Virus record (IMG/VR): IMGVR_UViG_3300021356_000797
Location: 39,841-103,840 of that record
DNA from: a virus
Strand: one strand, 5' to 3'
DNA: 64,000 nucleotides
The translations under genes and the position numbers were made by a program. Positions 1 to 18,967 of this stretch are shown in pieces; the stretch's first letter is position 1, and each line of letters starts with the position of its first letter. The notes under the pieces are model-generated. The model was not told the origin of the DNA. It did no database searches and was given only the letters and a program-made list of their open reading frames with translations.

Positions 1-2
1 GT

Positions 3-1196: not shown

Positions 1197-1216
1197 TCTC
1201 TTTGATTCTTGCTCTA

Positions 1217-1237
1217 TTTTCAGTAAATTATAAGTAG
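1217..1237 (+). promoter_or_regulatory. Putative phage late promoter (motif copy 1)
   Basis: TTTTCAGTAAATTATAAGTAG just upstream of ATG 1244; resembles copies at 12717, 16095, 37002 and 56504. Confidence 0.45.
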
Positions 1238-1243
1238 GTATCT

Positions 1244-1837
1244 ATGAGTAACAAACCGTATAAGGCACCTGATTTAAATGCCCCTAGATATAGGGAAAAA
1301 GTATTTAGTATATTAAACAGTAAACTGTTAGAAGAATTTAAAGAGAAGTATCCCCGCCACAAAGATCTAGACATAAAACAATTTAAAGATATGATCAATA
1401 CCTTTAATGAGAACGTCTGGAAAGAAGTAATAGAAAATAGAGACGGTGTAGAACTTCCTGATGGTATTGGATTTTTGTTTATAGCAAGCACGCCAGCTTC
1501 AAAACATAAAAACAATATAGATTTCAAGCAGTCAGCTGAGCTGGGTGTTACTGTACATAACAAGAACTGGGAGACAGATAACCGTCTAGCCAAGATTATG
1601 TATAGTAATTACCACGCCAAGTATAGGTTTGCCTTTAGAGAGATCTGGGGATTTCAAGCTGTAAGACAATTCAAGAGAACTGTTGCACAGACCTTTCCAG
1701 ATAACTATAACAGGTATGTTCATCTCACAGATACTAAAAGAGTCTCAGACATCTTTAACAAGACTATTGACCGTAACAAGGCCAAGAGAACGTTTGAGAA
1801 CTCTATAGATGAGTATAATGAGTTTGAACTAGATTAA
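1244..1837 (+). CDS. IHF/HU-like DNA-binding protein (crAss-type)
   Basis: Helix-helix then 'GVELPDGIGFLFI' and 'WGFQAVRQFKR', an HU/IHF-like pattern; position before the tail genes matches crAss-like phages. Confidence 0.6.
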   Translation: MSNKPYKAPDLNAPRYREKVFSILNSKLLEEFKEKYPRHKDLDIKQFKDMINTFNENVWKEVIENRDGVELPDGIGFLFIASTPASKHKNNIDFKQSAELGVTVHNKNWETDNRLAKIMYSNYHAKYRFAFREIWGFQAVRQFKRTVAQTFPDNYNRYVHLTDTKRVSDIFNKTIDRNKAKRTFENSIDEYNEFELD

Positions 1838-1838
1838 T

Positions 1839-2510
1839 ATGGCAACCATTGGTGAAGTTGTTTCAAGAGTAAGAAACCAATTTAAAAGCTCAAGACAAGA
1901 TGCCTTCCTAACGGATAGATACATCTATAGTCTGATTATTAAATACACTACAGTTTATATGCGTAGACAAGATTCTACCAATAAGCTTATGAGATTCAAC
2001 AGTGTATTTAAAACCCTTCCTTTTGTAGAGCTCATTGAAGTAGATAAGGTTGAAGCACAGTGCTCAGGTATTAAGTCTGGGTGTACTATCAAACGTACTA
2101 AAGCTAAGCTTCCAAACTTTATGCAGGGTTACTGGGGACCTATTATTAGAACTGTGAGCTCTATTGATGGTGGTATTGAGCTACAACCTACCCAGCCTGG
2201 TACATATACTTCAATGACTAAGACAAGTAGTTTCAAGTATAACAGTACTAAATACTTTTGGTTTCTGAATGGTTACCTCTATCTACCTAATGTAGACTGG
2301 GATGCTATTAAGATTGAAGGAGTATTTGAAGATGATATTACTAAATGGAACTGTGACCCAGAGGATGATTGTCTTATTAGACAGGAACAAGAGTTTAATG
2401 TTCCTGACTTTTTGTTTGCAGAAATAGAAACCCAAGTTATGAATGCATTGCTAGGAGCTGCTAGAGTACCTAGTGATGGTAAGCATGATAATCAAAATAT
2501 CTCTAGATAA
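1839..2510 (+). CDS. Tail ring/tubular protein (crAss ring protein family)
   Basis: 223 aa with 'YFWFLNGYLYL' and P22 gp4-like N- and C-terminal helices; syntenic position before the muzzle gene. Confidence 0.6.
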   Translation: MATIGEVVSRVRNQFKSSRQDAFLTDRYIYSLIIKYTTVYMRRQDSTNKLMRFNSVFKTLPFVELIEVDKVEAQCSGIKSGCTIKRTKAKLPNFMQGYWGPIIRTVSSIDGGIELQPTQPGTYTSMTKTSSFKYNSTKYFWFLNGYLYLPNVDWDAIKIEGVFEDDITKWNCDPEDDCLIRQEQEFNVPDFLFAEIETQVMNALLGAARVPSDGKHDNQNISR

Positions 2511-3373
2511 TGGCAGATCTAATTAAATACAGAACGTTTGATCAACTCTTAGAAGATGTTAGCGTTGATTTCTCTGCGTATGCTTTAGAAGGTATGATAG
2601 AGCCTCAGCAGCTTATTAAGGTTGCTATGAAGGTAAACTTTGATTTGGGTTTACGTATTCAGAGAACTAAGCAGGTAATTCTAGAAGTAGAAAAAGGTAA
2701 AGTAAAACTACCTTCAGATTACTACTCTCTCAACTTTGCTTACATGACCGGCACATACAGAGTAGAAACTCAAATGCCATCAGGAACTGTTATTGAAGAT
2801 ACTATACTAGATGCTAGTAAAGTACAATTGGATGAGAACGGTTGTCCTGTAGATGGTAGTGTATGTGTAAATGATTGTGGAGACTATTACCAACTTATTC
2901 AAAAGAGTAAGACAGATGTTAAAATCTATGAGACTTTTGGTAAGATACGGGCAGTAGGTCAGGGAGTTATGGAAAGCTGCCCTAATGGACGGTGGACTAC
3001 AGAAGAAAACATTATGGAGATTCGTGATGGATTTATCTATACCAATTTTACATCTGGTAAGATTTATCTAAACTATCAATCTCAAATGGAAAATATTCAT
3101 GGTGAGCTTTTAGTAATGGATCATCCATTGGTTAATGAATACTATGAGTATGCTTTGAAGCAACGTATTCTAGAGAATATGATTTTTGCAGGTGAGCAAG
3201 TATCTCAACAACTTAATTTGATTGAGGTACGTTTACGTGCTGCAAGAAACAATGCTTTATCATTTGTCAATACTCCAAACTATGCAGAGCTGCAGAAGAT
3301 TTGGAAGATGAATAGAAAAGCACAGTATGACAAGTATGTCAACATGTTTAAGAGTACACCAACCATAAGGTAA
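2510..3373 (+). CDS. Tail tubular/ring protein (P22 gp4-like, crAss Ttub)
   Basis: 'GKVKLPSDYY', 'DGFIYTNFTSGKIYLNY', 'GELLVMDHP'; directly precedes the stabilisation protein. Confidence 0.7.
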   Translation: MADLIKYRTFDQLLEDVSVDFSAYALEGMIEPQQLIKVAMKVNFDLGLRIQRTKQVILEVEKGKVKLPSDYYSLNFAYMTGTYRVETQMPSGTVIEDTILDASKVQLDENGCPVDGSVCVNDCGDYYQLIQKSKTDVKIYETFGKIRAVGQGVMESCPNGRWTTEENIMEIRDGFIYTNFTSGKIYLNYQSQMENIHGELLVMDHPLVNEYYEYALKQRILENMIFAGEQVSQQLNLIEVRLRAARNNALSFVNTPNYAELQKIWKMNRKAQYDKYVNMFKSTPTIR

Positions 3374-3374
3374 G

Positions 3375-6300
3375 ATGGCAAAGAAGAAGACTACTTCACA
3401 AGCAGCTAATGCTGCTATGCAGATACATACAGACTCTTTTGTAAAAGGGATGGTACAAGATGTCAATGAATCTTTTCAGACAGCTGGTACGTGGCCGCAT
3501 GCAAGAAACGCAGTAAATAATTCTACAGAAGGAGATGTTGGTACATTAGAAAATGAAGCATCTACTAAGCTCTGTGTTGAAGTCCCTTATGATGTAATTG
3601 GACAGATCCACCTATATGATGATAAGTGGGCAATCTTTACTACTGATGATATCAATAGTGAGATTGGTATGTTTGATGAAAGCCAGTGTTCTTATACTAA
3701 GATTGTCAATGATTCAGTACTAGCTTTTGATAGAAACCATTTAATTAAAGGTGCTGCTAAAGAAAACTATGATTGTACTTGGCAATTGTACTGGGATGAT
3801 GGTAAGAACCCATCAAGAACTTTAAATATTGACGACATCCCTTACAAAGTTACTAAGACTGTAGTGGATGATTGTGTAGTAGAAACTCCTACTGATAAGT
3901 TAGATGAAGACCAGATCCGTTTAGCAAGACTAATGGACACTCCTTGTATTACTATAGAGCAGGGAGAAGTGGGTACACTACTTAATGGTACTTACCAAGT
4001 ATATATTGCTTACTCTGTAAATGGTACAAGAGTTAGTGATTACATGGCAGCTTCTAATTTACAATCTATATTCTTTCATGAGAATAGTGTAGGATCTATT
4101 GAAGTTAATATTGAGGGTTTAGATACAGAACGTTTTGATGAGTTTGAGCTTGCTGTTGTAACCTATATTAATCAGCAGACAAGTGCTTCTACATTTGGTT
4201 ATTATTCTACACAAACAAAGCGTATAACTATTGACAGTATAGATCAGCGTTTAGTAGCTATTCCATTAAGCATGCTTCTTTTACGTAAGCCTGCTTATGA
4301 AAAGTCTGATGCTATGTACACTGTTACCAACTACTTGTTGAGAGTTGGTGTATCAGATAAGTTTGATTTTAACTACCAACCTTTAGCTAATAAGATTAAA
4401 GCTAACTGGGTTGCTGTAGAGTATGATGCAGACTATTACAGAGATGGTGGTAGCAATACTGGCTATATGCGTGATGAGCAGTATGCATTCTTTATTAGAT
4501 GGATTTACAATACTGGAGAGAAGTCTAGCTCATATCACATTCCTGGTAGACAAGCTTTCTCAGGAGATAGACAGCTTTTAGCTCCAGATGGTACAGAGAT
4601 TTGGGGAGATACCCTACAAGAGAAGTGGAGTGTATATAACACAGCTACAGTAACTAGCATTCAAACTGAAAACTTACCAGACGGTGGTAAAGTAGTTAAA
4701 AGAGGTAAGATGGGTTACTGGGAGTCTAGTGAAAGATATCCTGATAATAAGCCCGTGATATGGGAAGATCTTTGTGGTAAACCTATACGTCACCATAAGA
4801 TGCCAGATGATTGTATTATTCCTAGACATAATGAGGGTGGTACAAAAATTAACGTATTAGGTGTAGAGTTTACTAATATCAAACCCCCAGTAGATAATGA
4901 TGGTAATCTAATTCCTGGTATTGTAGGTTATGAGATTCTTAGAGGATCTAGAAAAGGTAATAAGTCTATTATTGCTAAGGGTCTTCTTAACAATATGTTT
5001 GAGTACAGTATTCCAGGTAAAGATGGAATTACAGGAATGTATCCTAACTATCCATTTAATGATCTTAGACCTGACCCATATCTGACAAAATACTTTCCTG
5101 AAGATGGTAGATTAAATCAAGTAAAACGTAATAAGAATAATGAATTTGCAATAGACACCTATAGCAAACGTCATTTTACATTTCATTCTCCTGATACACA
5201 GTTTAAGCATCCGTTCTTATCAGGATCAGAACTACGTATATATGGAGATGCTGTAGGTTCTTCTGAGGGTCAGTTTATAGATCCTTACAAACATCCTGAG
5301 CACAAGATGTTAGGAGATAGTGTAATGCTTATTGCAGTTCTATTAGGTTTAGGAAATGTTATTAGAGGTATGTCTGGAGAGACTACACGAAAAGTTACTT
5401 TTCCTAAAGTTGCAGGAGGAAACATTACAGGTGCTGCTGGAGCTGCTGCAGGGATAGCGGCAGCTATAACTGAAGGAGGTTTACAAGCAACTGGTGTAAA
5501 CTTTTTAACTAAAATAACAAGTAGTGATGCAGCTTCTAAATTATTAAAATATGGAGCTAGTGTTGCTTTTGGAGGCGAATATGAAGAAACAACTACAGGT
5601 TCTTCATATAGTGAGTTACCTCCATTTTTAAAATTATTTTCAATTGTACCAGCCTTCTTAACATTTACTCAGATAGGTACAGATCAAGCATTAGATCTTA
5701 TTTATAATATGCTTGGTTATAAACAATATGCTTTGCAACACATTGCACACGGTAAGTATGATAAGTTTGTATGTACTACATCTGGTAATAAAAGAAGAAA
5801 ACTTGATAAAGGTATTTACCTAAAGAATCAAAACTATTCATTTGATACAGATAGAAGTATTAATAACTTTATGCGTAGCAGAACTGTTGCGCTAGAGGTA
5901 GCTAAAAATATTGCAGATCCTATTACTCCAGATACTAGTAAGTATACATTGGGTAGTAGACAGTTTTGGGATTTAGATCTTAAGGATGTAAAGGATGAGG
6001 TTTTTAATTCAACTATTTCGTCTAAGTATGTTGGAATTAAGATTCAGAATGAAAATCAATACGGTCAGTTAGATAGTATTGCTCAATCTTTAACATCATG
6101 TGCCCAGATTTTACCAAGTGTATATGGTGTAAATAGTGAGTTTAAAACTCCTGTTCTATTTGGAGGAGATATTTACATTACTAGATACACTGAGAAGAAT
6201 ACAATGTTCTTTTTTAATGATTGGTTGGCAGGTAAAGAATTTCAAGATGGTGAGGAATATGATTACCGTCAACACATTAATGTACCGTATCCTAGATACT

Positions 6301-8162
6301 ATGCTAACACTCAGAGATATAGATTTGATAATTTTGTAGAAGGGTTAAGCCAAAGTTTATTTAGTCTTACAGGTATTAAAAATTTACTTACAGGATTTCA
6401 AAAAGAAGATGACGTACAAGATCAAATTGACACGTTACCTTCTGACTTTCATAACTTAGATAGAAAGACCTCCCCTAATGGTTTATTTAGAGCTAAGGGT
6501 TGGTTCTATCTTTTTAACTCAGGTGTTAAAGATTTCTTTGTAGAATCAGAAATTAACTGTGGCTACAGAGATCATGATGATAAGCCTACTACGCGTCACT
6601 ATGACGACAGAGAATACACAGACTTACAACGTATCTTCCGTGCAGATGAGATCACTGCGGGTAACCACTTTAAGTATGACTTCTCTCTATCAGCTGGATA
6701 TTACTTTACTACAAATGTTACTATGGGTAATATTCAGACTAGAGATTATGATCCTGAAATATCAGAGACATGTCATACATACTACCCTAACAGATTGATA
6801 TACTCTCTGCCACAAGAGCAAACTCTTAAAGTTGATAACTGGAGGACCTTCCTGGTAAACAATTATCAAGATTTTAAGAGCCCCCTTACAGCAGTTAAAC
6901 CTATTGGTGACGCTGGTGCATTAATCATGCTGCGTAGAGAATCTCCTATGTTCTTTGCTGGTAATGATACCATTCAATCTACAGATGGATTAGAGATTAC
7001 TATTGGAGACGGAGGACTATTTGATTCACGTCAAAAGATTAGAAACGTAGTTAACACTGATGCATCTTATGAGTATGGTAGCTGTCAAAACAGATTAGCT
7101 ATTAGTGCTACTCCTGCTGGTATCTTCTATGTATCACAGAACCAAGGTAAAATCTTTGCGTATTCTAATACGCTTAAAGACTTAACTGGTGCTGGAATGA
7201 AGTGGTGGTTTGCTAAGTATCTACCATATCAGATTAAAGAAGACTTCCCTGAGTTTGATCTTGTAGATAACTCTGTAAATGGTGTAGCGGTTTCTACTAT
7301 CTATGATAACAGAAATGCAATCTTATATATTACTAAAAAGGATTACAAGCTACGTTCTGAGTATAAGGGTAAAGTAGAATGGATTGAGAATAATATCTTC
7401 TCTGTAGGCAATGCAAGAGTAGAGCTTGGGGATAGTAGATTCTTTGAAGATGCTAGCTGGACTATTAGCTATGACGTTAAGTCTGGTGCATGGATCTCAT
7501 TCCATGACTGGCATCCTGATGTATTGCTACCAGGTAAGAATCTATTCATGAGTGTTAAGGATAAGAAGATCTGGAAGCACAATAATAGATGTGATAGCTT
7601 CTGTAACTTCTACGGTAAAGACTATCCATTTGAAGTAGAACAGATTATCAACACTGGTCAAATGGTTTCTACTATTAGAAGCTTTGAGTACCAGTTAGAA
7701 TGTTACCAATACAAGGAGAACTGTAAAGATGAGTTCCATATCCTAGATGCAAACTTTGACAGAGCTGTAGTATATAACTCTGAGCAAGTATCAGGTATGC
7801 TTAATCTAAATATTTCTCCTAAGAATGACCCTCAAGGAATTTTAGGCTATCCTAAAATAAATGTTGCAAGTATTGATATCTTGTATAGCAAAGAAGAAAA
7901 TAAATACAGATTCAACCAGTTCTGGGATATTACTAAAGATAGAGGTGAGTTTAGTAATGTGACTCGTAATGTATGGGATACACAACCTAACGGTTACATT
8001 AGAACTCTTAACAACTTCAATCTAGACTACACTAAAGATGCACATGAGCATAAAAAGTTCCGTCACTATAATAACAGATTGTTCTTGAAAAAGAATGTAT
8101 CAGGAAGAACTAAGATGAGACTGAGGTTAACCAACGCTAAGCTAAATATTTCCCATAGATAA
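3375..8162 (+). CDS. Tail stabilisation/muzzle protein (P22 gp10-like, crAss Tstab)
   Basis: 1595 aa, beta-rich; 'FVKGMVQD', 'GYMRDEQYAFFIRW', 'WTISYD..W.SFHDWHP' match crAss-like Tstab. Confidence 0.8.
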   Translation: MAKKKTTSQAANAAMQIHTDSFVKGMVQDVNESFQTAGTWPHARNAVNNSTEGDVGTLENEASTKLCVEVPYDVIGQIHLYDDKWAIFTTDDINSEIGMFDESQCSYTKIVNDSVLAFDRNHLIKGAAKENYDCTWQLYWDDGKNPSRTLNIDDIPYKVTKTVVDDCVVETPTDKLDEDQIRLARLMDTPCITIEQGEVGTLLNGTYQVYIAYSVNGTRVSDYMAASNLQSIFFHENSVGSIEVNIEGLDTERFDEFELAVVTYINQQTSASTFGYYSTQTKRITIDSIDQRLVAIPLSMLLLRKPAYEKSDAMYTVTNYLLRVGVSDKFDFNYQPLANKIKANWVAVEYDADYYRDGGSNTGYMRDEQYAFFIRWIYNTGEKSSSYHIPGRQAFSGDRQLLAPDGTEIWGDTLQEKWSVYNTATVTSIQTENLPDGGKVVKRGKMGYWESSERYPDNKPVIWEDLCGKPIRHHKMPDDCIIPRHNEGGTKINVLGVEFTNIKPPVDNDGNLIPGIVGYEILRGSRKGNKSIIAKGLLNNMFEYSIPGKDGITGMYPNYPFNDLRPDPYLTKYFPEDGRLNQVKRNKNNEFAIDTYSKRHFTFHSPDTQFKHPFLSGSELRIYGDAVGSSEGQFIDPYKHPEHKMLGDSVMLIAVLLGLGNVIRGMSGETTRKVTFPKVAGGNITGAAGAAAGIAAAITEGGLQATGVNFLTKITSSDAASKLLKYGASVAFGGEYEETTTGSSYSELPPFLKLFSIVPAFLTFTQIGTDQALDLIYNMLGYKQYALQHIAHGKYDKFVCTTSGNKRRKLDKGIYLKNQNYSFDTDRSINNFMRSRTVALEVAKNIADPITPDTSKYTLGSRQFWDLDLKDVKDEVFNSTISSKYVGIKIQNENQYGQLDSIAQSLTSCAQILPSVYGVNSEFKTPVLFGGDIYITRYTEKNTMFFFNDWLAGKEFQDGEEYDYRQHINVPYPRYYANTQRYRFDNFVEGLSQSLFSLTGIKNLLTGFQKEDDVQDQIDTLPSDFHNLDRKTSPNGLFRAKGWFYLFNSGVKDFFVESEINCGYRDHDDKPTTRHYDDREYTDLQRIFRADEITAGNHFKYDFSLSAGYYFTTNVTMGNIQTRDYDPEISETCHTYYPNRLIYSLPQEQTLKVDNWRTFLVNNYQDFKSPLTAVKPIGDAGALIMLRRESPMFFAGNDTIQSTDGLEITIGDGGLFDSRQKIRNVVNTDASYEYGSCQNRLAISATPAGIFYVSQNQGKIFAYSNTLKDLTGAGMKWWFAKYLPYQIKEDFPEFDLVDNSVNGVAVSTIYDNRNAILYITKKDYKLRSEYKGKVEWIENNIFSVGNARVELGDSRFFEDASWTISYDVKSGAWISFHDWHPDVLLPGKNLFMSVKDKKIWKHNNRCDSFCNFYGKDYPFEVEQIINTGQMVSTIRSFEYQLECYQYKENCKDEFHILDANFDRAVVYNSEQVSGMLNLNISPKNDPQGILGYPKINVASIDILYSKEENKYRFNQFWDITKDRGEFSNVTRNVWDTQPNGYIRTLNNFNLDYTKDAHEHKKFRHYNNRLFLKKNVSGRTKMRLRLTNAKLNISHR

Positions 8163-11100
8163 TGAAAGGCCGGATTACTAAAACAGGGTATAGAAGAAAT
8201 TCACCAGACGTGAATAATGACTTTAATATTATTCCTAGTAATAGGATTAGTATGAAAGGCGTAGACTTTCCTGTGTTGGGTATTGATAACTTGGGCAATA
8301 CTCAATTAATGCATCCCGGAGGAGAGTATGAATATCAAGGAGATTATGTCACAGAGCTCCCTATGTATGGTTCTGGTGGCCTCACTCAGTGGTTTGCAGA
8401 GGAATGGGTGGACATTAAGACTGGTAAAAAATGTGGTAGATCTGGAAAAGACAAAAAGGGAAGACCTTACCCAGCGTGTAGACCAAGCAAAAGAGTAAAC
8501 AAGACAACACCTAAGACAGCTTCTGAGTTATCTGCAGCTGAGAAAGCTAAGTTTAAAAGAAAGAAGAAGTCAGGTAAACGTATTGATTATAATCATAAGC
8601 GTGCTCAAGAAGGTACTGAAGTCCCATTAAATCGTAGTGAAGTATTTAACATTCCTAGAACTCTTAGATATGAAAATGGTAATATGGTTCTTCAAGATAA
8701 ACCTGTCTGGGACGGAATGCTTGACGAAGTTACTATTACTCCTTATACTCAATCTGAAATTGCATTTCAGGAACTAATGAATAATAAAGCAACTGGAGGT
8801 TTAGAGCCTGTATATCCTGTATTTGAGGTGCTTAGTGCAGGTATAAAAACTCCTTTTACAGCAAGTGCTAAAGCTTTACAAACTGGCGTTAGAAAAGCTC
8901 CTTCTGTAATTAACCCTAGATATTTTAAACCTAACTCTAACATGTACTATAGAGGTATAGGTAAAAAAGGTATGGAAGATGCTTTACAGTCGGGGTTGTT
9001 TAGAGCTAAACCTGCTGATCAAATTCCTGCACGCATGGTAGATTTAGGATCTGTGGGTAAAGTAGACATGGCTAAACGTTTTAATAAGACTTACTATAGT
9101 CCTCGTTTTAATATTGCAGATCAATATGGTGCAGGATATATAGCAGAGGTACCTAAAGATGCAGCTAAGTTTAGCAAACGTTATAAAAACACTGACTGGA
9201 GCATGTCTACTAGAGAACAGATTCCAGTTAGTAAAGGCCGTATACTAGAAAAAAATTGGTGGTCTGGTTATAAACCAGTTAAAAAATACGGAGGTTCACT
9301 ACCTAAAGCTCAGGAAGGTAATAGTGAAGCACCATTAAACCGTGGTGAAATATTTAATATTCCTAGGACAATGGGATATGAAGATGGTAAAATGGTTGTT
9401 CAAGACAAACCTATCTGGGATGGTATGCTTGACGAGGTTACTATTACACCTTATACGCAAGGTAATATTTTATCTGAGTATATGATGAATAACAAAGCTA
9501 CAGGAGGATTAGAACCAGTATACCCTGTTTTTGATTTAATGACTTTAGGTTTAAAAGCTCCTGCAACAGCTGGGGTTAAAGCTATACAAGCGGGTATTAA
9601 AAAAGCACCTTCTAAATTAAACCCTAAGTATTATAATCCTAATATGTATGCAAAAGGGAATCCAAACGTTATGTATAGACAGGTTGGAAAAGATGCTTAT
9701 CAGGATTTTGCAAATAGTGGATTTGTGAGAACTAAAGCTGAAATTACAGATAATCCTATATTAGGGTTACTTGAGACACAAAAAGAAATAAAAGATGTTC
9801 TACGTTATAATAAAGAGTATAGACCATCTCAATATAGACACGCTACAGACTTTAGAGCTCCTTTTTTTAGCAGAGGTAAAACAACTACAATAAAAGATGG
9901 GGGTGCTGATTACTTGATTCAAACTCGTCCTGATAAAGTTGGACCTAATAATTTTTATAGTGCACAGTGGAATATTCTTCATGGAGATCAGCCGCCCGTT
10001 GTAGGTGGGTTTGGAATAATGGATCCTATGTACAGAGCTGCGGATAACTTTGATGTATTTAAGAAAAGTTGGTGGCATGGTTATAAACCGGTTAAACAAT
10101 TAGGAGGATCTTTAACCAAATATCAAGTACAAGGAGAAGTATTTCCTACAATGCTTGATGAAGTAACTGTTATTGATAAAGGAGCGCCTTCTGCATTTGG
10201 TAAAGGAAGTTCAGATAGAATGGGTACTACCTATACTATTCCAATGAATATAAAAAATGCTAGAGGGTATAGTCAAAATGGAATGCGTGTTTTATTTGAC
10301 AGCCCTGGTAAATTAGCAAAAGATGCTCAAAAGGAATTTAGATCTCAATTTGGTTTTAATGCTAATAAGTTAAAGAAGAATTTTAAAAACATATTTAGTC
10401 AAGACTTTATAACTCTTGGAGATGATCAGACTTTTCAAAATGCAGCTTATGCTGGCCCCATGAGTTTAAGTAATTCTTATTTTATTAATGAGTCAGATAA
10501 TATTATTGAGCCAAGAACTATTAGCAGGAGTAATACAAAAGTTACTACTAACCTTATTAATAATGATAGATCTGCTTTACTTGCAGATATGGCAAGACCT
10601 GGTACTAAAGCAGACTTTTTTAATTTATTTCAACAACGTGAAGGTTTTAGACCTTATTTAGAGGCTAAGGTTAGTAATGGTAAAGTGTATGATGCTAAAC
10701 TTGGTGAGGAAGATGTTACATCCAGAAGTCCTTTTGAATCTAATATGATTAACTATCTAGGTAGTGATGCATATTTTGAAAGACTTGCTGGCACTCAATA
10801 TAATAATGAGATAGATGTTAATAAATGGTCTACAGATAAAGACTATAGAAAATCTTATGCAGAACGTTTAAAAGCAGATAAACCAGAATTCCTTAAAAAT
10901 TATTATGAAGGTCTTTCAAAAACTCTTGCAAATCCTATAGTTGCTGAAATAGATCACAATCTTGGATCATATGCTAGTGCAGGAACACATAACCATGGAA
11001 CTTTAACAGGACAAAATGTTATAGATTACAACCCTTATAACTTTAATAATGCCTTTGGAGGAGCAGAGAAAAGAAAAGAAGCCTTGATAAAAGAGTTAGA

Positions 11101-12697
11101 ACGTAGAGGGGCTACTCCTGCGGAAATTGATGTAACAATGGAATATGGTATAGGGCCAGGAATGAATGATAATTTTTCCGATGTAATGTCTCATGAGCTT
11201 GCCCATGTTTATAGTCTGGGATCTAAAGATTATATTTTAAATAATGAGTCTGCAAACGTAGCTCCTGGTATAGATAAAGAATATGAGCTTTTATGGAATA
11301 TAAACAAAGACACAAAAGATCAACCTTTTTATTCATATCAAAACCATTTAAATACTGGGTCAAAACCTATTAGTTATAATACTGCTTTAAACAGTGAAAT
11401 ACAAAATGTTGCTGACCGTTTAAATACTAGGTACCATAACATTTCTCCTGAAGAAACTAAAGCTGATGTATATGGTATCAGAAACTATCTTCTTAGAACT
11501 CAAGGTCAAGATTATGATCAACCCTTTACTAAAGAAAATTATGATTCTTTAATGAATGATGACAAATTTAAAGAAGGTTTGTTTTATAAGCGCATGCAAG
11601 AAAGATATGGTGATGATCAATCTAAATGGATGAAAGCTATGAATCTTATTGCTTCAAAAGAAGATGGTAAAAATTATAGAATGTATGCAGAACGTGGTGG
11701 GCAGTTGCCTAAAGCTCAAAAGGGTAATGGTGAAAAACACACTGTAGCATCAGGTGAAACATTCTATGGTATTGCTAATAAAAATGGTATTGCTTGGGAA
11801 GATCTTGTTAGTGCTAACCCAGGTGTTGATATAGAAAAACTTTCAGTTGGTCAGATCATTAATATCCCATCTGTTTCAAAATCAGGGGGTGTAAAAATTA
11901 CATACTCAGATCCTGAACTTAACATTCTTCAGCAAGAAAGAGAGCTTGGAAATATAAAACAATCAGAGCCAGAACAAGTAGAACAGGTTAAAATTACAAA
12001 GCAACCTGTTGAAACTAAAACTACTCAGGTATATGATGGTCCTGGTTATTTTCCAGAAGCGTTGCTACTTAAGCAAGCATATAAAGAATCTACATTTAAT
12101 CCGGCTGCTCAATCTAAGATTAAAGATCCGGCTCAAGGATTTGCCCAGTTTAGACCTATTACTGTAAGAGAATTGCAGAGACTAGGTTTTGCTGATGATA
12201 CATTTGATCCTTTTGATTACACTCAGTCTATTGGTGCTCAAAGAGATTATATGAACTATTTGTATACTAGACCATGGATAGATAAGCCTAATCAATCTGA
12301 AGAGGTGAGATTAGCAAAAACATTAGCAGCATATAATTGGGGACCAGAAGTATTTAAGACATTCTTGACTAATAAGAAAGCAGCTGGAGTAGATATATAT
12401 AACTCCTTAGATTGGGTAGATCAATTACCTGGAGAAACTGGTGATTATATTAATAAGATTTTATTAGATAGTGATGAGCAATTCCAGGCAGATTATCAAA
12501 AAGCTCTTAAAGACAGTGCTAACTTAAAGTACATTAACCTTTATAATCTAAAAGCAGGAGGAGAATCTCTACCAGTATATAATACATATAAGACTAAGAA
12601 TAGAGCTTGGTTAGCAGCGCGTAAAAATTTAGGCGCTAATAAGAAGTTTATGTACGGTGGTAAAGTTTACTCTACAAGCACACCTAAAGGGCTGTAA
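8162..12697 (+). CDS. Modular virion cargo protein: small basic domain, two tandem ART-like modules, zincin (HELAH), LysM, lytic transglycosylase (SLT)
   Basis: HELAH at 11192-11206; LysM 'HTVASGETFYGIA...LSVGQIINIP' at ~11738-11869; SLT 'KESTFNP..AQGFAQF..LAAYNWGP..ETGDYINKI' at ~12074-12460; internal duplication. Confidence 0.75.
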   Translation: MKGRITKTGYRRNSPDVNNDFNIIPSNRISMKGVDFPVLGIDNLGNTQLMHPGGEYEYQGDYVTELPMYGSGGLTQWFAEEWVDIKTGKKCGRSGKDKKGRPYPACRPSKRVNKTTPKTASELSAAEKAKFKRKKKSGKRIDYNHKRAQEGTEVPLNRSEVFNIPRTLRYENGNMVLQDKPVWDGMLDEVTITPYTQSEIAFQELMNNKATGGLEPVYPVFEVLSAGIKTPFTASAKALQTGVRKAPSVINPRYFKPNSNMYYRGIGKKGMEDALQSGLFRAKPADQIPARMVDLGSVGKVDMAKRFNKTYYSPRFNIADQYGAGYIAEVPKDAAKFSKRYKNTDWSMSTREQIPVSKGRILEKNWWSGYKPVKKYGGSLPKAQEGNSEAPLNRGEIFNIPRTMGYEDGKMVVQDKPIWDGMLDEVTITPYTQGNILSEYMMNNKATGGLEPVYPVFDLMTLGLKAPATAGVKAIQAGIKKAPSKLNPKYYNPNMYAKGNPNVMYRQVGKDAYQDFANSGFVRTKAEITDNPILGLLETQKEIKDVLRYNKEYRPSQYRHATDFRAPFFSRGKTTTIKDGGADYLIQTRPDKVGPNNFYSAQWNILHGDQPPVVGGFGIMDPMYRAADNFDVFKKSWWHGYKPVKQLGGSLTKYQVQGEVFPTMLDEVTVIDKGAPSAFGKGSSDRMGTTYTIPMNIKNARGYSQNGMRVLFDSPGKLAKDAQKEFRSQFGFNANKLKKNFKNIFSQDFITLGDDQTFQNAAYAGPMSLSNSYFINESDNIIEPRTISRSNTKVTTNLINNDRSALLADMARPGTKADFFNLFQQREGFRPYLEAKVSNGKVYDAKLGEEDVTSRSPFESNMINYLGSDAYFERLAGTQYNNEIDVNKWSTDKDYRKSYAERLKADKPEFLKNYYEGLSKTLANPIVAEIDHNLGSYASAGTHNHGTLTGQNVIDYNPYNFNNAFGGAEKRKEALIKELERRGATPAEIDVTMEYGIGPGMNDNFSDVMSHELAHVYSLGSKDYILNNESANVAPGIDKEYELLWNINKDTKDQPFYSYQNHLNTGSKPISYNTALNSEIQNVADRLNTRYHNISPEETKADVYGIRNYLLRTQGQDYDQPFTKENYDSLMNDDKFKEGLFYKRMQERYGDDQSKWMKAMNLIASKEDGKNYRMYAERGGQLPKAQKGNGEKHTVASGETFYGIANKNGIAWEDLVSANPGVDIEKLSVGQIINIPSVSKSGGVKITYSDPELNILQQERELGNIKQSEPEQVEQVKITKQPVETKTTQVYDGPGYFPEALLLKQAYKESTFNPAAQSKIKDPAQGFAQFRPITVRELQRLGFADDTFDPFDYTQSIGAQRDYMNYLYTRPWIDKPNQSEEVRLAKTLAAYNWGPEVFKTFLTNKKAAGVDIYNSLDWVDQLPGETGDYINKILLDSDEQFQADYQKALKDSANLKYINLYNLKAGGESLPVYNTYKTKNRAWLAARKNLGANKKFMYGGKVYSTSTPKGL
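8603..10108 (+). repeat. Tandem intragenic duplication (copy 1 ~8603-9295, copy 2 ~9308-10108)
   Basis: Both copies read AQEG..PLNR.E.FNIPRT..YE.G.MV.QDKP.WDGMLDEVTITPYTQ...MNNKATGGLEPVYPVF... and end WW.GYKPVK..GG; the middles diverge. Confidence 0.9.
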
Positions 12698-12716
12698 ATA
12701 TGGTAGTCTGCTATAA

Positions 12717-12737
12717 TTTTTGTATATTATAAATGAG
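12717..12737 (+). promoter_or_regulatory. Putative phage late promoter (motif copy 2)
   Basis: TTTTTGTATATTATAAATGAG upstream of ATG 12753. Confidence 0.55.
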
Positions 12738-12752
12738 ATATCGTAACTAGTT

Positions 12753-14114
12753 ATGTCAAAAAATATTCCCACAAATAAGAAGCTTTATGCTAGAGTAAAA
12801 GCAGAAGCTAAAAAGAAATTTGATAGATGGCCTTCTGCCTATGGATCTGCCTGGCTTGTAAAAGAATACAAGAAACGTGGCGGAGGTTATAGAAAGGCAG
12901 AAGAAGGAATGGAAGTTCCTGATTATGGTTACGGTGGCGGCATGAACTATGCAGACTATGCTTACATGTATGGTGGTGAAGATGCAGACATGATGGAATA
13001 TGCAAAGGGTGGTGGGATACCTGAGCGTTACAAGAACATGGGATTCACTAAAGTAGGTGTAAAGAAAAAGTCTACACGTCCTGGTAAAAAGTGGATGGTA
13101 CTTGCTAAGAAAGGAGACAAGTACAAAGTGGTACACGGTGGTTTTAAAGGAATGAAAGACTACACCCAACACGGTAGCTCTAAAAGACGTAAACGTTTTT
13201 GGGATAGAATGGGTGGTAAAGACTCTGCTAAAGCTAAAGATCCATTTAGCCCACTATACTGGCACAAGAGATTTGGTACCTGGGAAGAAGGTGGTGAAAT
13301 CTTTAATGAGGATTCTATGGATTTCTACGCACAAGGTGGTGGTACAGATAACCCAGGATTTAAAGCATTACCTCCAGAAGTACAGCAAAACATTCTAGAC
13401 AATATGGGTATTGGTGGTGAGTGCTATGCTTGTGGTGGTCAAAAGAAATATCAGCTTGGTGGTAAGCCTGGAAATCCATTTACTCAAGAAGAGTTGGATT
13501 ATATGGAGAGCATGTATCAACAACCTGATCTAGAATATTTACCTTATCCAGATGATACTGGTAACTTGGATGTAATGTACCCAAACCCAGCCATGGGGTT
13601 AGATGTAATGCCCCCAGACTCAACTATAGAGTTAGATGAAGTGGTAGTAACAGATACTAGACTTGGTGGTTTAAAGCCTAAGCCAATTCCAGATATGACT
13701 CCGGAAATGTTTGAGCCTGCTTTAATGCCGGTAACACTACCAGAAAGAGTGGAGTCTTATATAGAAGATCCAGAGAAAGAGGAAGAGCAAAAGAATAAGC
13801 CTAATAGAAGATTACAGTGGGCTATGGGTAGAATTGCTATGGCTAATGCTGCAAATCAGTTTATGGAAAACATGAATGACCGTAAACAAGAAGCTAAAAT
13901 GAGACAGAATCTTCTTACTGATAACTTTGTACCAATGATTACAGGTAATGACAGAGGAGACTATGATATAAATACAGGTATCTTTAGACCTGATGATTAT
14001 GTACCTACACAGTTTCAATCTTTTATGGCAAAGGGTGGACAGATTGGTATGGTAGATGAAGACATATTACAAGAACTTATTGCAGCAGGTGCTGACATTG
14101 AAATCTTAGACTGA
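12753..14114 (+). CDS. Modular virion/cargo protein with DUF5872-like N-terminus, DUF5754-like basic domain and many xxGG motifs
   Basis: 'KKLYARVKAEAKKKF..WPSAY.SAWLVKEYKKRGGGY' and 'KKWMV...VHGG..GMKDYTQH...RR..F..R......SPLYW'; family names from recall. Confidence 0.6.
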   Translation: MSKNIPTNKKLYARVKAEAKKKFDRWPSAYGSAWLVKEYKKRGGGYRKAEEGMEVPDYGYGGGMNYADYAYMYGGEDADMMEYAKGGGIPERYKNMGFTKVGVKKKSTRPGKKWMVLAKKGDKYKVVHGGFKGMKDYTQHGSSKRRKRFWDRMGGKDSAKAKDPFSPLYWHKRFGTWEEGGEIFNEDSMDFYAQGGGTDNPGFKALPPEVQQNILDNMGIGGECYACGGQKKYQLGGKPGNPFTQEELDYMESMYQQPDLEYLPYPDDTGNLDVMYPNPAMGLDVMPPDSTIELDEVVVTDTRLGGLKPKPIPDMTPEMFEPALMPVTLPERVESYIEDPEKEEEQKNKPNRRLQWAMGRIAMANAANQFMENMNDRKQEAKMRQNLLTDNFVPMITGNDRGDYDINTGIFRPDDYVPTQFQSFMAKGGQIGMVDEDILQELIAAGADIEILD

Positions 14115-16066
14115 TGAAGAAGATAAAAATTAATAAACTTCCTAAAGGCTTTCACAGAATGCCAGACGGCACAATCATGAGAGACTCAGACCACCAGAAA
14201 ATGCAAGCTGGTGGTCAACCTGTTTTAGGGCCAACACCTAGAGCAGCAGCTAATCTTGAAGCAGAAAAGGGAGAAACAGTTGTTACAGATTTAGATAATA
14301 ACATGATTCCTGAGCACTATAAGATTGGTGGTAAGAAGCACAGTGAAGGTGGTACACCTCTTAATCTTCCTCCCAAGTCTTTTATCTTTTCAGATCATAA
14401 GTCTATGTCAATTAAAGGTGATGACTTAAAGAAGTTTACTAACACTAGTAAAAAGTCTATGACCCCAGCAGCTATTGCAGGGTTAAAGAAGTTTGACATT
14501 AGTGAAGAGAATAAAATTCTAAAAGATCAAGATGCAGATAAAATGGCTAAGGCTACTGCAGAGCGTAACATTCAAGCTAAGCTTGTCAAGTTAGGAGAGC
14601 TTGCTATGCTTCAAGAGTCTAAGAAAGATTTTGATAATGGTATTCCTGAAATTGCGTTGCCATATTTAAAACGTAATGGAGTAACTCCTGAACAAGTAGA
14701 GATGATTAATGCAGAGCTTGAGCAGAGAAATATGATGGAAGAAATGGCTGCTTATGGTAAAGAGATGTATGGATGGGGTGGTCAAAAGAAAATGCAGGGA
14801 GGTGGTCAGCCTAATGTATCTTATGCTCCTGATGCATTAAAAGTATTTAATCAATATGGTCTAACATTTAGTTTACCTGGTGCAACTGCATACGCAGATG
14901 TACAGGGTTATAAAGGAGATGGTCTATTCGGTGATGCTGAAACTAACCTTCCTGGGTTCTTTGAAGAGTTTACTGGAGTGTACTCTGATATTGATGCACT
15001 TAAAGAATCTTTAGATGATTATGGTGTTAATGATGTAAACCCTGAAGTTAAGAAATTCCAAGAGTGGTATACTAATACCCACATTCCTGAAGTAGCAAAT
15101 CAGATTCGTGCTGAAGTAAAAGAGAAGAGAGGTTATGAGATGACTGATGATGAGTTCAACGGTCTTGTAACTGGTCTTACTAGTGAGTTTGGTTTTCAGG
15201 ATGGTAAGAAAGGATTTGGATTTGATGGTAAGATGGGTACTGTAACTTCTGGTAGAAGAAGGTTAGGTTACTCTATAGATCCTATTGAAGATACCCCGGA
15301 AATTACACCACCAGAAACTATTCCTTATGAAGGAGAGGGTAGTGATACTAATTTTTATCAGCAAGATCTTGTAAAGATTGGTGCTAAGCTTGCAGATAGA
15401 GCAAACAGATACTATGGTTATACTCAAAGATTACAACCATACTTACCTGATCCGGTATTCTTAGATCCTGAAAGAGAGTTGCAAGCTAATCAAGAGGCTT
15501 ATGCTACAGCTGCAGCTACTCAAGGTCTTGTGGGCAGAGGTCAAAATTTAGCCGGCAATCTTTCTTTAATGCAAGGAAAGCTGGCGGAGCAACAAGCTAA
15601 TACATTAGCTAGATATACAAACGCTAATAATCAAATAGCTAACAGCTTTGAGCTTAAGCGTGGAGATGCTATTAATGCTTTCCAAGAGTACAACGCATTG
15701 CAGAATAGACAGCAAGCTATGGATACTGCCATTGTTAACCAGCAGTATGATAACTTTAGACGTCAGAAAAGAAATGATTTGGCTAATCTATATGCACAAG
15801 CTTTAACTAACAGAGCAGAAACAGATCTTCTTAATGATCTGTATCCTCAATATAGTATTGAACCTTTAACTGGGGGTATGGGATACTTTACCGGTAGAGG
15901 TTGGGATCCTAATTCTGATATGACTGCTTATGATAAGTTCCGTCAACAGTATTTACAAACTACTTTAGGAGGCCCTAGAACTAAAGAAGAAGGCTCAGTA
16001 CAAAAGAAATATGGTGGTTCTGCCTATAACAGAATGGGATTGAGTAAATTTATCAAGCGTAAATAA
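14114..16066 (+). CDS. Putative virion cargo/ejection protein
   Basis: 'NLEAEKGE...GKKHSEGG..L....FIFSD' domain, Q/N/A-rich helical C-terminus, no Cys seen; crAss cargo-gene position. Confidence 0.6.
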   Translation: MKKIKINKLPKGFHRMPDGTIMRDSDHQKMQAGGQPVLGPTPRAAANLEAEKGETVVTDLDNNMIPEHYKIGGKKHSEGGTPLNLPPKSFIFSDHKSMSIKGDDLKKFTNTSKKSMTPAAIAGLKKFDISEENKILKDQDADKMAKATAERNIQAKLVKLGELAMLQESKKDFDNGIPEIALPYLKRNGVTPEQVEMINAELEQRNMMEEMAAYGKEMYGWGGQKKMQGGGQPNVSYAPDALKVFNQYGLTFSLPGATAYADVQGYKGDGLFGDAETNLPGFFEEFTGVYSDIDALKESLDDYGVNDVNPEVKKFQEWYTNTHIPEVANQIRAEVKEKRGYEMTDDEFNGLVTGLTSEFGFQDGKKGFGFDGKMGTVTSGRRRLGYSIDPIEDTPEITPPETIPYEGEGSDTNFYQQDLVKIGAKLADRANRYYGYTQRLQPYLPDPVFLDPERELQANQEAYATAAATQGLVGRGQNLAGNLSLMQGKLAEQQANTLARYTNANNQIANSFELKRGDAINAFQEYNALQNRQQAMDTAIVNQQYDNFRRQKRNDLANLYAQALTNRAETDLLNDLYPQYSIEPLTGGMGYFTGRGWDPNSDMTAYDKFRQQYLQTTLGGPRTKEEGSVQKKYGGSAYNRMGLSKFIKRK

Positions 16067-16080
16067 ACCTTGAAGGTTTA
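16064..16080. promoter_or_regulatory. 17-bp palindrome, candidate operator
   Basis: TAAACCTT-G-AAGGTTTA is a perfect inverted repeat upstream of the late-promoter motif; a related site lies at 41321-41337. Confidence 0.4.
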
Positions 16081-16094
16081 CTAAACTTACCAGA

Positions 16095-16118
16095 TTTTTT
16101 AGTATATTGTATATATAG
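16095..16118 (+). promoter_or_regulatory. Putative phage late promoter (motif copy 3)
   Basis: TTTTTTAGTATATTGTATATATAG upstream of ATG 16125. Confidence 0.55.
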
Positions 16119-16124
16119 ACTAGT

Positions 16125-18965
16125 ATGGCAACATTTATTCCAAATATAGGTGACGTAACTCCTGAAGTAGAGTACTTTAGACCTAATCTAGAACTTATGG
16201 CTGGCTACTTGGAAACAAGACAAGGCCAGTTTAATGCTGCTAGAGATGAGCTAAATACAATGTACAATACATTGATGTCTCTAGATCTTACATTAGATGA
16301 GAATAAGAAAAGACGAGAAGAGTACTTCAAGGCTGCAGACCAGCAGATTAAAAAGTTTGCTAATGTAGATATCAGCTTACCTGAAAACATTGCTGCTGCT
16401 AAACGTGTATTCAGTCCTTTGGTAGAAGATGAAGCAATGTCTGAAGATTTCTTGTTTACTAGCAAGATTAAAAATATCATAACTACTGCAGAAAAGTTTA
16501 GAAACAGTTCTGAGGAAGAGGATAGAGCTAGATATAATCCAGAATCAATTAAGTATGCTCAGTTAAAGCAACAGGAGTACATCAATGCTTCTCCGGAAGC
16601 AAGAAAAGGTGTATCTAATTCTACTGTTAGATACGTATCTAATGTCAATCTTATGGAGAAAGCTACGGCTTTAGCTAAAGAGATGGACTTAAATGTAACT
16701 ATAGATAGTATTACTGGAGGTTATAAAGTAACTAATAAGAATGGTCAGTTGATTACTCCTCAACTGCAACAGGCTTTTACTGATGCTTTTATGTCAGATC
16801 CTGAAGTTGTAGAATATTACGAGCAAAGAGCTTATGTGGATGTACAAAGTCAGATTCAAAGCTTGGCCCCTCAGCTTGGTTATCAGGGTGCTATAGATGC
16901 ACTATCTCAAACACTTCAGGCTTCTAGCCAATTACTATTTGCTAAAAATGCAGAAGAGGCAAAAAAAGCTAAAGAAGTTTTAGATGCTCAGCGTAGAATT
17001 ATTGAAAATAAAATTGAAACTGAAGGGATTGTTGAGGGCTCTGAAGCTCATAGAGACTACCTTAATGTTTTAAAGAATTTAGAAACAGCTTCTAATAACC
17101 AAGAAATTGCGGCTCAAGGTTTAGGCTTGTCTTTAAATCAATTAAACTCTACAGAAGAATTATATAGTCTGGCTTTCCGTTTATCACTTAGTGAAGATAT
17201 TCAACGTGCAGCCCAGATCTTATCTGATAGAGGTATGGAGCAAACTGTTAAAGAAGATGCGTTTGCACTAGAAGCTGTTAAACAGCAGAATAGATTAGAA
17301 CTTGCTTTATTTAAAGCAGAACTTGAGAATGCTGGAAGTTCTAGTTCAGGACAAAGTGGTGTTAGCTGGGATCCTGTACAAGCTGCAGTAGATGCCGGTG
17401 CTAGAAGCCGTGGTGCAGAAGGTACAGAATATGCTGGTAACTTAGATATCACTACTGCTAAATCTGCATTAAAAGGTTATGTAGATATAGAAGAAGATAT
17501 GTACCGTAAATTTATTACCAACTTCTTGAGTAAAGAAAATGGTGGATATCTCAGCAGCGTAGGTGGCGGTTCTGCAAATGGTAAGGCTGCTGTAGATGCG
17601 TATCTTGCAGAGTTAGATGCTTTAGGTCCTCTAGAAAGACAGGAAAGAATTGCAGATGATCTACTAGAGATTTCACAAAGTGGTCATAGCTATGATGCTA
17701 AAGCATTAGAAGATATGGAGGCTATGGTAAACAGCATTGCTGCAGCTAATAATGCAGTTAATGGAACTGTTTATCAATCTCACAGGCTATTACAACAGGA
17801 ATATGCAGGTCAACCAGATGAGCTAATGCTATCTGAGTTAATGTTTGATGATGCTGGTGTAATTTTATCTGAGAGCCAGTTTGTAAATCAAGCTACAGAT
17901 TTTGTAAATGCTAATATAGCACGTCAAGATGGGGGTAGAGGATTTGATCAAAATAGATATACTAGTTATAGACAAACTTTTGATAACTATGGTAGTGCAT
18001 ATCCTACTTATGCAGAAGCAGATCCAAATAAGTTAAAAGAACTTTATCAGGTATATAAAAATAATATTGATAATATCTATAAAAATAATAGTGTTAATGT
18101 TCATCAATACTTTGATCCAGATATAGTTGGGGGAGGTTCCAGCCGTGCATTTGAAGTTAATGCTTCATATGTTGCAGATCCTATGACTTACTACAATAAA
18201 AAGAAAGCAGGTCATCAGAATTCTAAAAAAGCATTTACAGTTATAGCTGGTACTGTTATGGCTGCTAAAAATTCAGATAGCTACATCTATCCTGGTTCAA
18301 TGATTGAAAATAATTATTTTGGACTAGATGCTTTTCCAGATGGGGAAGATAACAAGATGGTTATAGAAAACGCTGCAACAGAATTGCTTAATAGCTTTTT
18401 ACAAACCGCTCAAAAATCTAATGATGGTAGCTCTGTAGGTAGACCTACGGCTATAGTAGATGTTGCAAAAGGAATTACTATTGGAGATAAACGTTATGTA
18501 GCTACACAGATTACATTTGATGAAACCTATATGGCTGGATTAAAAGAAGATAATCCAGGTAAGTATAAAGATGCTCCAAGTAAATACACCATTTTTACAC
18601 CTCAAGAAGCTATGCCTGTTGGCTACTTCCCTAGTGATGGATCAGGAGCTTTAATGGCTTCTATTATAGCTAGTGGTGAACGCACTACACAATTCCCTCA
18701 AGGGCTAGGATCAGTTACTTATACTTATGATGATGAGTCTGGATTGATTCAAGTCTATGGTAAAATTAAAAGCCTTAATCCAGAAAATGGAGGCTATGAA
18801 ATGAGAGAGTATGTAGAGTCTGTAGATGAAGAAAACTTTGACATTGTAAGAAATTCTGTATGGAATGTAGTTCAGGCAACTCTTGAATCTAATGAACAAC
18901 GCTTAAAAGAATTAGAAGCGGCACAAGGTATTACAAGGGTTACTGATCCTAATAAATTAAAGTAA
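16125..18965 (+). CDS. Putative virion cargo/ejection protein
   Basis: 946 aa, helical N-half, no Cys seen; first gene of the giant-protein operon. Confidence 0.6.
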   Translation: MATFIPNIGDVTPEVEYFRPNLELMAGYLETRQGQFNAARDELNTMYNTLMSLDLTLDENKKRREEYFKAADQQIKKFANVDISLPENIAAAKRVFSPLVEDEAMSEDFLFTSKIKNIITTAEKFRNSSEEEDRARYNPESIKYAQLKQQEYINASPEARKGVSNSTVRYVSNVNLMEKATALAKEMDLNVTIDSITGGYKVTNKNGQLITPQLQQAFTDAFMSDPEVVEYYEQRAYVDVQSQIQSLAPQLGYQGAIDALSQTLQASSQLLFAKNAEEAKKAKEVLDAQRRIIENKIETEGIVEGSEAHRDYLNVLKNLETASNNQEIAAQGLGLSLNQLNSTEELYSLAFRLSLSEDIQRAAQILSDRGMEQTVKEDAFALEAVKQQNRLELALFKAELENAGSSSSGQSGVSWDPVQAAVDAGARSRGAEGTEYAGNLDITTAKSALKGYVDIEEDMYRKFITNFLSKENGGYLSSVGGGSANGKAAVDAYLAELDALGPLERQERIADDLLEISQSGHSYDAKALEDMEAMVNSIAAANNAVNGTVYQSHRLLQQEYAGQPDELMLSELMFDDAGVILSESQFVNQATDFVNANIARQDGGRGFDQNRYTSYRQTFDNYGSAYPTYAEADPNKLKELYQVYKNNIDNIYKNNSVNVHQYFDPDIVGGGSSRAFEVNASYVADPMTYYNKKKAGHQNSKKAFTVIAGTVMAAKNSDSYIYPGSMIENNYFGLDAFPDGEDNKMVIENAATELLNSFLQTAQKSNDGSSVGRPTAIVDVAKGITIGDKRYVATQITFDETYMAGLKEDNPGKYKDAPSKYTIFTPQEAMPVGYFPSDGSGALMASIIASGERTTQFPQGLGSVTYTYDDESGLIQVYGKIKSLNPENGGYEMREYVESVDEENFDIVRNSVWNVVQATLESNEQRLKELEAAQGITRVTDPNKLK

Positions 18966-18967
18966 CT

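Follow-up and report, generated by a model that had tools for sequence, protein, structure and literature searches.

Short-tailed phages move large, partly unfolded proteins from the virion across the bacterial envelope. In ΦcrAss001 the cargo proteins are stored in extended form and are ejected N to C, partly unfolded, with capsid pressure as the sole ejection force that has been proposed (PMC10172136). In TonB-dependent bacteriocins the TonB box lies in a disordered stretch, and TonB-ExbBD pulls these proteins into the periplasm (PMC12927319). For Bt1763, deletion and alanine replacement have both confirmed 81-VDEVVV-86 as the TonB box (PMC7782687). Here we describe short TonB-box-like sites of the form LDEVxV[TI] in the products of two adjacent genes, P0001 and P0002, of the IMG/VR virus record IMGVR_UViG_3300021356_000797 (103,840 bp). 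The window analyzed comprises bases 39841–103840 of this record (64,000 nucleotides), and the coordinates of phage features are those of the window.

The motif is real and non-random; it is conserved, it recurs in unrelated contexts and it matches genuine transporter TonB boxes. Judged from the sequences, the sites appear to be a selected short linear motif in probable cargo (ejection) proteins of one marine crAss-like lineage. As to their function we lean, with slightly less than even confidence, toward a TonB-box mimic that would be used after ejection into the periplasm.

TonB-box-like sites in P0001 and P0002

Four such peptides had been reported in the initial annotation of the window, and their translations proved to be exact and in frame with P0001 (sites 1–3) and P0002 (site 4; Table 1). 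When the whole 103,840-bp genome was searched in six frames with the pattern [LIVM][DE]EV[TVI][VI], only these four occurrences were found, all in the two adjacent genes. It should be noted that the number of independent sites is three, because sites 1 and 2 belong to one tandem duplication: the modules bearing them are 41% identical over ~250 amino acids (aa) (E 3e-68). The header in which these sites lie has columns that are invariant across 22 homologues. The boxes in P0001 are spaced by 236 and 242 residues. Site 3 is found upstream of the HELAH region of P0001, and its KYQ..GE...LDEV arrangement is also present in P0002 orthologues. That the motif comes shortly after a GG, as had been noted, is true of three sites (46, 17, and 58 aa, the 17 aa being those of site 3) but not of site 1, which is 115 aa past the last GG and is preceded by the linker KRAQEG, which has no GG.

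Resemblance to TonB boxes of Bacteroidota transporters

A DNA scan for DEVVVTGYG gave matches almost exclusively in Bacteroidota genomes, and from it the three marine Flavobacteriaceae genomes used in the comparison were taken (Formosa, Maribacter, and Saonia). In these the 30 best Plug-domain matches were collected blind to the motif, and 29 of the 30 have a box 8–12 residues ahead of the Plug domain. The SusC-type box reads L-[DE]-E-V-[VI]-V-[VTI]-G-Y-G, and the classical-type box reads LDEVVVSDSR (e.g., in the transporter L140), LSEVVVTSTR or LDQIVVTATR. The premise that Bacteroidota transporters have L-[DE]-E-V-V-V as their TonB box is borne out by 29 of the 30 best Plug matches in three Flavobacteriaceae genomes. 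Enterobacterial transporter boxes have the form D-T-x-x-V, and the D-E-V form of the phage sites fits the Bacteroidota consensus better.

A 7-position matrix was built from the 29 Flavobacteriaceae transporter boxes only. With this matrix the four sites rank 1–4 among the 31,428 positions of the phage proteome, with scores of 22.7 (site 4), 15.6 (site 3), and 12.9 (sites 1 and 2). The next best position scores 8.4, and the median of the real boxes, 20.4, is below the score of site 4. Within-protein shuffles gave 0.39 hits with a score of at least 12.9, the top shuffle score in 200 runs being 20.1. The likeness is also seen at the level of DNA: when bases 1–20000 of the window were compared blind with 401 Flavobacteriales genomes, a short match of bases 13632–13661 to genome G252 was found, with 28 of 30 bases identical and, in translation, 9 of 10 residues (LDEVVVTDSR in G252, LDEVVVTDTR in the phage). 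The G252 box comes right after the signal peptide and right before the Plug of a Plug plus beta-barrel transporter. Searches of the 47-aa stretch around each site with NCBIfam models were empty; hidden Markov models do not register a motif so short.

The specificity of the motif was assessed in the genome of Saonia flava (G003, 3.8 Mb) with a DNA pattern for [LF][DE]EV[TIMAV][VIM], which matched 41 times as compared with 10 times for the backwards control. Twenty-two of these matches lie ahead of a Plug domain and 6 follow a CarboxypepD_reg domain in other outer-membrane-type proteins; 5 are in frame in unrelated proteins, and 8 are out of frame or within short open reading frames (ORFs). TonB-box contexts account for 28 of the 33 in-frame occurrences (85%). 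Outside such contexts the background is ~4e-6 per residue (estimated from 5 sites in ~1.1 million residues), and at this rate ~0.01 sites are expected in P0001 plus P0002.

Saonia also encodes four small proteins of ~250–270 aa, three of them in tandem (G003:C1:1349242-1350882, L163–L165; the fourth is L276, G003:C2:23676), none of which has a Plug or a barrel. In three of the four, CarboxypepD_reg is followed by LDEVVIRPYNLSGD, LDEVVVRPFNLSGD or LDEVVVTPENQ; L276, with LEEVIVKPYQLTGY, was classed by sequence only. These orphan extension-plus-box proteins resemble the phage LDEVTITPYTQ.

Conservation and recurrence of the motif

In full-length orthologues of P0002 the motif stands out as a conserved island, [TI][ME]-L-D-E-V-x-V-T-[AD]-x-R, inside a poorly aligning stretch. 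The L, the E, and both V positions of the island are nearly invariant, and position 5 is T, E, D or V. With position 5 variable and positions 4 and 6 fixed, the island alternates as a beta-strand would be expected to. In some orthologues IEDIILP takes the place of the motif, and in more distant relatives the motif is lost. A second conserved island, GGLKPKPIP, is found ~10 residues past site 4 and forms with the box a ~25-residue conserved stretch in an otherwise variable region. Burial in a folded domain, which according to the initial annotation would speak against a TonB box, is not predicted for site 4 (this applies to P0002 only), because AlphaFold2 (46 sequences) gives P0002 residues 256–351 as coil with a predicted local distance difference test score (pLDDT) of ~30.

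The recurrence of the motif was followed in P0001 relatives (72 proteins, 102 k residues), a hit being a matrix score of at least 12. There are 40 hits, 25 in the shared header (...QDKPIWDGM-LDEVTIT-PYTQ) and 15 elsewhere. The latter are in at least six unrelated contexts and compare with 0.61 hits expected from shuffles (maximum 3), which is a ~25-fold excess. Examples are YPVNAQGIPMDM-LDEVTVT-GDKF, GKTAGRIF-LDEVDVV-ADK, and SLPD-LDEVTVS-APRS. Lower-scoring variants such as LPEVTVTG, LPEVTVYG, and LPEVTITA are also found in relatives. Recurrence across unrelated contexts points to a short linear motif rather than to a piece of one domain.

Motif-bearing proteins and their gene neighborhood

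The features of the locus are collected in Table 1. Genes for ring protein 2 and ring protein 1 (PF25702, PF24228) are just upstream of the muzzle gene, and the gene order is Ring2, Ring1, muzzle, P0001, P0002, followed by ORFs of 650, 946, 1259, 2929, and 1805 aa. In ΦcrAss001 the genes for the muzzle (gp44), for the cargo proteins C1 (gp45) and C2 (gp46), and for gp47 have the same order. P0001 contains a DUF5872 fragment, two duplicated ~240-aa modules, the HELAH region, LysM, and SLT, and it has a PHROG match to a lytic tail protein. Neither P0001 nor P0002 matches Pfam crAss_CARG1 (PF25725) or crAss_CARGO2 (PF25712) at E <= 0.1; ΦcrAss001 gp45 and gp46 match these families at 2e-66 and 6e-219. 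From their gene position, the peptidoglycan-acting domains, and the PHROG lytic tail and pilot matches, P0001 and P0002 are probably cargo proteins. P0001 has LysM, SLT, HELAH, and two duplicated payloads in one chain and, by its domain content, is a polyvalent protein. In its relatives ART-PolyVal, YkuD, LysM, and SLT occur in shuffled orders.

Table 1. Features of the cargo-position locus (positions in the window)
Feature	Position	Strand	Remarks
crAss-type muzzle protein P0003, 1595 aa	3375-8162	+	Pfam PF25731 crAss_MUZ, E 8.6e-29
P0001, 1511-aa multi-domain ("polyvalent") cargo-type protein	8162-12697	+	Position of ΦcrAss001 gp45
Module header 1, PLNRSEVFNIPRT...QDKPVWDGM-LDEVTIT-PYTQ...ATGG	8624-8800	+	Holds site 1
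TonB-box-like site 1, LDEVTIT	8720-8740	+	P0001 residues 187-193; matrix score 12.9
Module header 2, tandem duplicate of header 1	9332-9508	+	Holds site 2
TonB-box-like site 2, LDEVTIT	9428-9448	+	P0001 residues 423-429; matrix score 12.9
Linker KYQVQGEVFPTM, then TonB-box-like site 3, LDEVTVI	10118-10174	+	Motif 10154-10174, P0001 residues 665-671; matrix score 15.6
HELAH, possible zincin active-site motif	11192-11206	+	P0001 residues 1011-1015
LysM domain	11738-11869	+	Pfam PF01476, E 4.6e-10
SLT lytic transglycosylase domain	12053-12382	+	Pfam PF01464, E 2.1e-8
P0002, 453 aa, DUF5872 (residues 6-47) plus DUF5754 (residues 105-153)	12753-14114	+	AlphaFold2: mostly disordered
TonB-box-like site 4, LDEVVVT, extended LDEVVVTDTR	13632-13661	+	LDEVVVT 13632-13652; LDEVVVTDTR is P0002 residues 294-303; matrix score 22.7, best match
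Second conserved island, GGLKPKPIP	13665-13691	+	P0002 residues 305-313; G-L-x-P-K-P-I-P in orthologues

P0002 has 907 homologues at E <= 0.001. DUF5872 is split over both genes: P0001 residues 71–139 (8372–8578) correspond to profile positions 53–114 and P0002 residues 6–47 (12768–12893) to profile positions 1–42, the halves being in permuted order.

The domains downstream of the boxes had been described as effector-like, two as ART-like and one as a zincin region. For ART-like payloads there is no support from Pfam or from PDB sequences. Payload 1 (8909–9286, P0001 residues 250–375; YRGIGKKGMEDAL...TYYSPRFN...YIAEVPKD) is 60% identical to P0154 residues 644–767; the aligned part of P0154 falls outside the ART-PolyVal domain of that protein, and the ART-like label is unsupported. 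With no Pfam or PDB sequence match, payload 1 is an uncharacterized, widely shuffled payload domain. Of the zincin assignment the HELAH motif itself remains, and nothing else backs it: no family match was found for the region, and a PDB sequence search was also empty.

Distribution, host, and points against a TonB-box function

A number of observations weigh against a TonB-box function. The TonB box is a beta-strand motif of low information. The boxes are all internal (residues 187, 423, and 665 of 1511; residue 294 of 453) rather than near an N-terminus, and no evidence was found for a processing at GG motifs, which had been thought to bring each box close to an N-terminus. A Pfam scan of P0001 and P0002 finds no Plug domain after the sites, and the AlphaFold2 model of P0001 residues 140–713 with sites 1–3 has a mean pLDDT of 35 and is uninformative. 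The generality across crAss cargo proteins implied by the initial annotation does not hold, since the motif is missing from ΦcrAss001 gp45 and gp46 and from the regions ±20 kb around the muzzle gene in Cellulophaga phi17:2 and in Flavobacterium Fpv1 and FpV4. Of 80 IMG/VR loci (555 k residues) in which a protein shares with P0002 its DUF5872/DUF5754 part, 69 are without the motif; there are only 11 hits, 8 of them in cargo-position genes. MLDEVTVT is rare in IMG/VR, with 8 stretches as compared with 4 for the reversed control. Missing from most relatives, the motif is lineage-specific and cannot be essential for this type of virion. Finally, the best cultured match to the muzzle protein of this phage is from a cyanobacterial phage.

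The latter match is L182 of Leptolyngbya phage Lbo-JY46 (PP438436.1 82844-87808; 88% coverage, 28% identity, E 5e-112), which indicates that crAss-type muzzles are not confined to phages of Bacteroidota. There is no motif in the 20-kb flanks of the Lbo-JY46 muzzle gene. The human-gut crAss-like phage csAssE-Sib has a weaker site (TLPEVEVVAALP / TLPEVEVVAALPNPEV, score 12.5) in a lysozyme-bearing structural protein annotated as a tail lysozyme (L186 26183-28603). A cargo-position protein from IMG/VR (L261/L262 5839-9102) carries NLDETVVTAYPNEG, which we take to fit the D/E-T-x-V-V-T-A form of proteobacterial TonB boxes, perhaps a sign that the motif tracks the host's type of box. The IMG/VR loci were found by an alignment-based scan; a search with the single P0002 sequence gave no matches.

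As to the host, related muzzle proteins occur in cultured phages of Cellulophaga and Flavobacterium. A 22.4-kb contig with 33% GC in a Flavobacteriales assembly (G073:C105:11728-21249; L298, L299) is collinear with bases 216–8298 of the window at 66–81% DNA identity; its ORF at the position of P0001 is truncated at 459 aa and lacks the motif. The contig is a fragment of a related crAss-like phage and is weak evidence for a Flavobacteriales host. In the 401 Flavobacteriales genomes searched only DUF5872 fragments were found. A tRNA search of the window found none, and the promoter TTG-N-TAnnTTTG is not enriched in it (17 as compared with 17.1 expected).

Alternative explanations

The motif could be functional and have nothing to do with TonB, being a signal for docking or packaging into capsid or tail or a site for a maturation protease. 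This appears somewhat unlikely, in spite of the fact that the motif is confined to cargo-position genes, that it recurs at module junctions, often past Gly-rich linkers, that of its residues L and E vary least, and that its lineage specificity is what is expected of a virion-specific signal. The cleavage rule of the T4 prohead protease is L/I-x-E, which L-D-E followed by V would fit. Polyvalent proteins have been proposed to be cut into units (PMC5512222). However, such a signal leaves the match to TonB boxes, which reaches 9 of 10 residues, unexplained, as a protease site does the conserved V-x-V-T beyond the supposed cut, and no similar site is found in the capsid, the portal or other virion proteins. 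By Pfam or PHROGs there is no prohead protease in the terminase-portal-capsid module, where a divergent protease is possible. Cleavage in cis by the HELAH zincin was considered and rejected, since motif and HELAH do not co-occur: the HELAH region has no homologue in 26 of 28 motif-bearing relatives, and any HExxH is missing from most.

Distinctly improbable, in our view, is that the sites are ordinary or acid-capped beta-strands that are carried along with shuffled modules and have no dedicated partner, the likeness to TonB boxes being convergence. It is true that 25 of the 40 hits in relatives sit in one mobile header, that AlphaFold2 places a weak hairpin shortly before the motif, and that by composition, taken as a proxy for disorder, the flanks of the sites look no more disordered than other parts of these proteins. 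But a plain strand would hardly be found in at least six non-homologous contexts at ~25-fold the shuffled frequency, nor would it be expected as a conserved island in a poorly conserved segment of pLDDT ~30, and the 85% specificity of the pattern for TonB-box contexts in a host-type genome (Saonia) also argues against it. The idea that the modules jam TonB and so block superinfection or nutrient uptake, offered earlier as an alternative, has in its favor the sequence likeness to the TonB box only, and we consider it highly improbable on grounds of topology and copy number. The N-termini of P0001 and P0002, judged without a predictor, are not signal-peptide-like, and newly made copies should stay cytoplasmic; the ~12 copies per virion, a number taken by analogy with ΦcrAss001, would be few relative to cellular TonB.

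Proposed mechanism and its significance

If the sites are TonB-box mimics, as we tentatively favor, we infer periplasmic delivery, TonB binding, and pulling as follows. Delivery to the periplasm is suggested by the synteny with ΦcrAss001 cargo genes and by the peptidoglycan-acting domains; the target of LysM and SLT is periplasmic because both act on peptidoglycan. The cargo proteins would exit the tail N to C, partly unfolded, as was proposed for ΦcrAss001 gp45. A box reaching the periplasm would engage the host TonB C-terminal domain by beta-strand pairing, and the TonB-ExbBD motor, driven by the proton motive force, would then pull or anchor the cargo chain. The three boxes of P0001 could serve as successive handles, one ahead of each payload, and such handle-wise pulling would resemble the import of TonB-dependent bacteriocins. 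That in this crAss-like lineage the TonB-ExbBD of the host indeed pulls the unfolded cargo into the periplasm via the repeated boxes, perhaps opening the way for DNA, is a possibility about which we are rather doubtful.

In full-text literature searches no paper was found that places a TonB box in an ejection or internal protein of a phage. If the proposal is correct, a TonB box in ejected proteins points to a concrete energy source, and the piracy of TonB boxes, so far known from bacteriocins, extends to phages. It would be the first energized, host-motor-driven protein ejection described for a tailed phage and a natural case of multi-handle TonB import. An open question in the bacteriocin field is how one TonB box can import chains more than 10 times longer than the transporter plug (PMC12927319), and phage boxes that are repeated about every 240 residues bear on this question. 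Should the motif instead serve packaging or processing, the cargo modules of uncultured marine crAss-like phages could still be recognized by it.

Comparison with known systems

With the boxes of Bacteroidota TonB-dependent transporters, both of the SusC/RagA type and of the classical Plug-barrel type, the phage sites have an L-[DE]-E-V-x-V-[TVI] core in common. At site 4 the likeness continues to T-D-T-R, to be compared with LDEVVVTDSR and LDEVVVSDSR, and the phage LDEVTITPYTQ resembles LDEVVVTGYGTQ. The phage box differs in that it is without Plug and barrel, is encoded in a virion module, occurs in multiple copies per protein, and has T as the preferred residue at position 5.

With ΦcrAss001 gp45 (C1) and gp46 (C2) the phage genes have in common that they directly follow the muzzle gene. 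The ΦcrAss001 proteins, however, belong to Pfam cargo families of their own, have no TonB-box-like site, and their ejection is ascribed to capsid pressure. In the T7 ejectosome (gp14/15/16), gp16 also carries a lytic transglycosylase. Filamentous phage g3p binds TolA through a folded domain, and phages T1 and phi80 are TonB-dependent, relying on an energized receptor. Filamentous phages as well as T1 and phi80 exploit host Tol or Ton energy-transducing systems for entry, but none of them is known to have an ejected protein with a TonB box.

Polyvalent proteins of phages and conjugative elements likewise have many unrelated effector domains in one injected chain; the paper describing them makes no mention of TonB and has no comparable recurring junction motif (Iyer et al. 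2017, PMC5512222). TonB-dependent bacteriocins (group B colicins, pyocin S2, klebicin C, and pesticin) resemble the phage proteins in that they are foreign proteins with a copy of the host TonB box. Pesticin also carries a peptidoglycan hydrolase, in which it is comparable to P0001. The bacteriocins are secreted as free toxins and have a single box, at the N-terminus, plus a receptor-binding domain, whereas in the phage proteins the boxes are internal and repeated, and their arrival would be via the phage tail.

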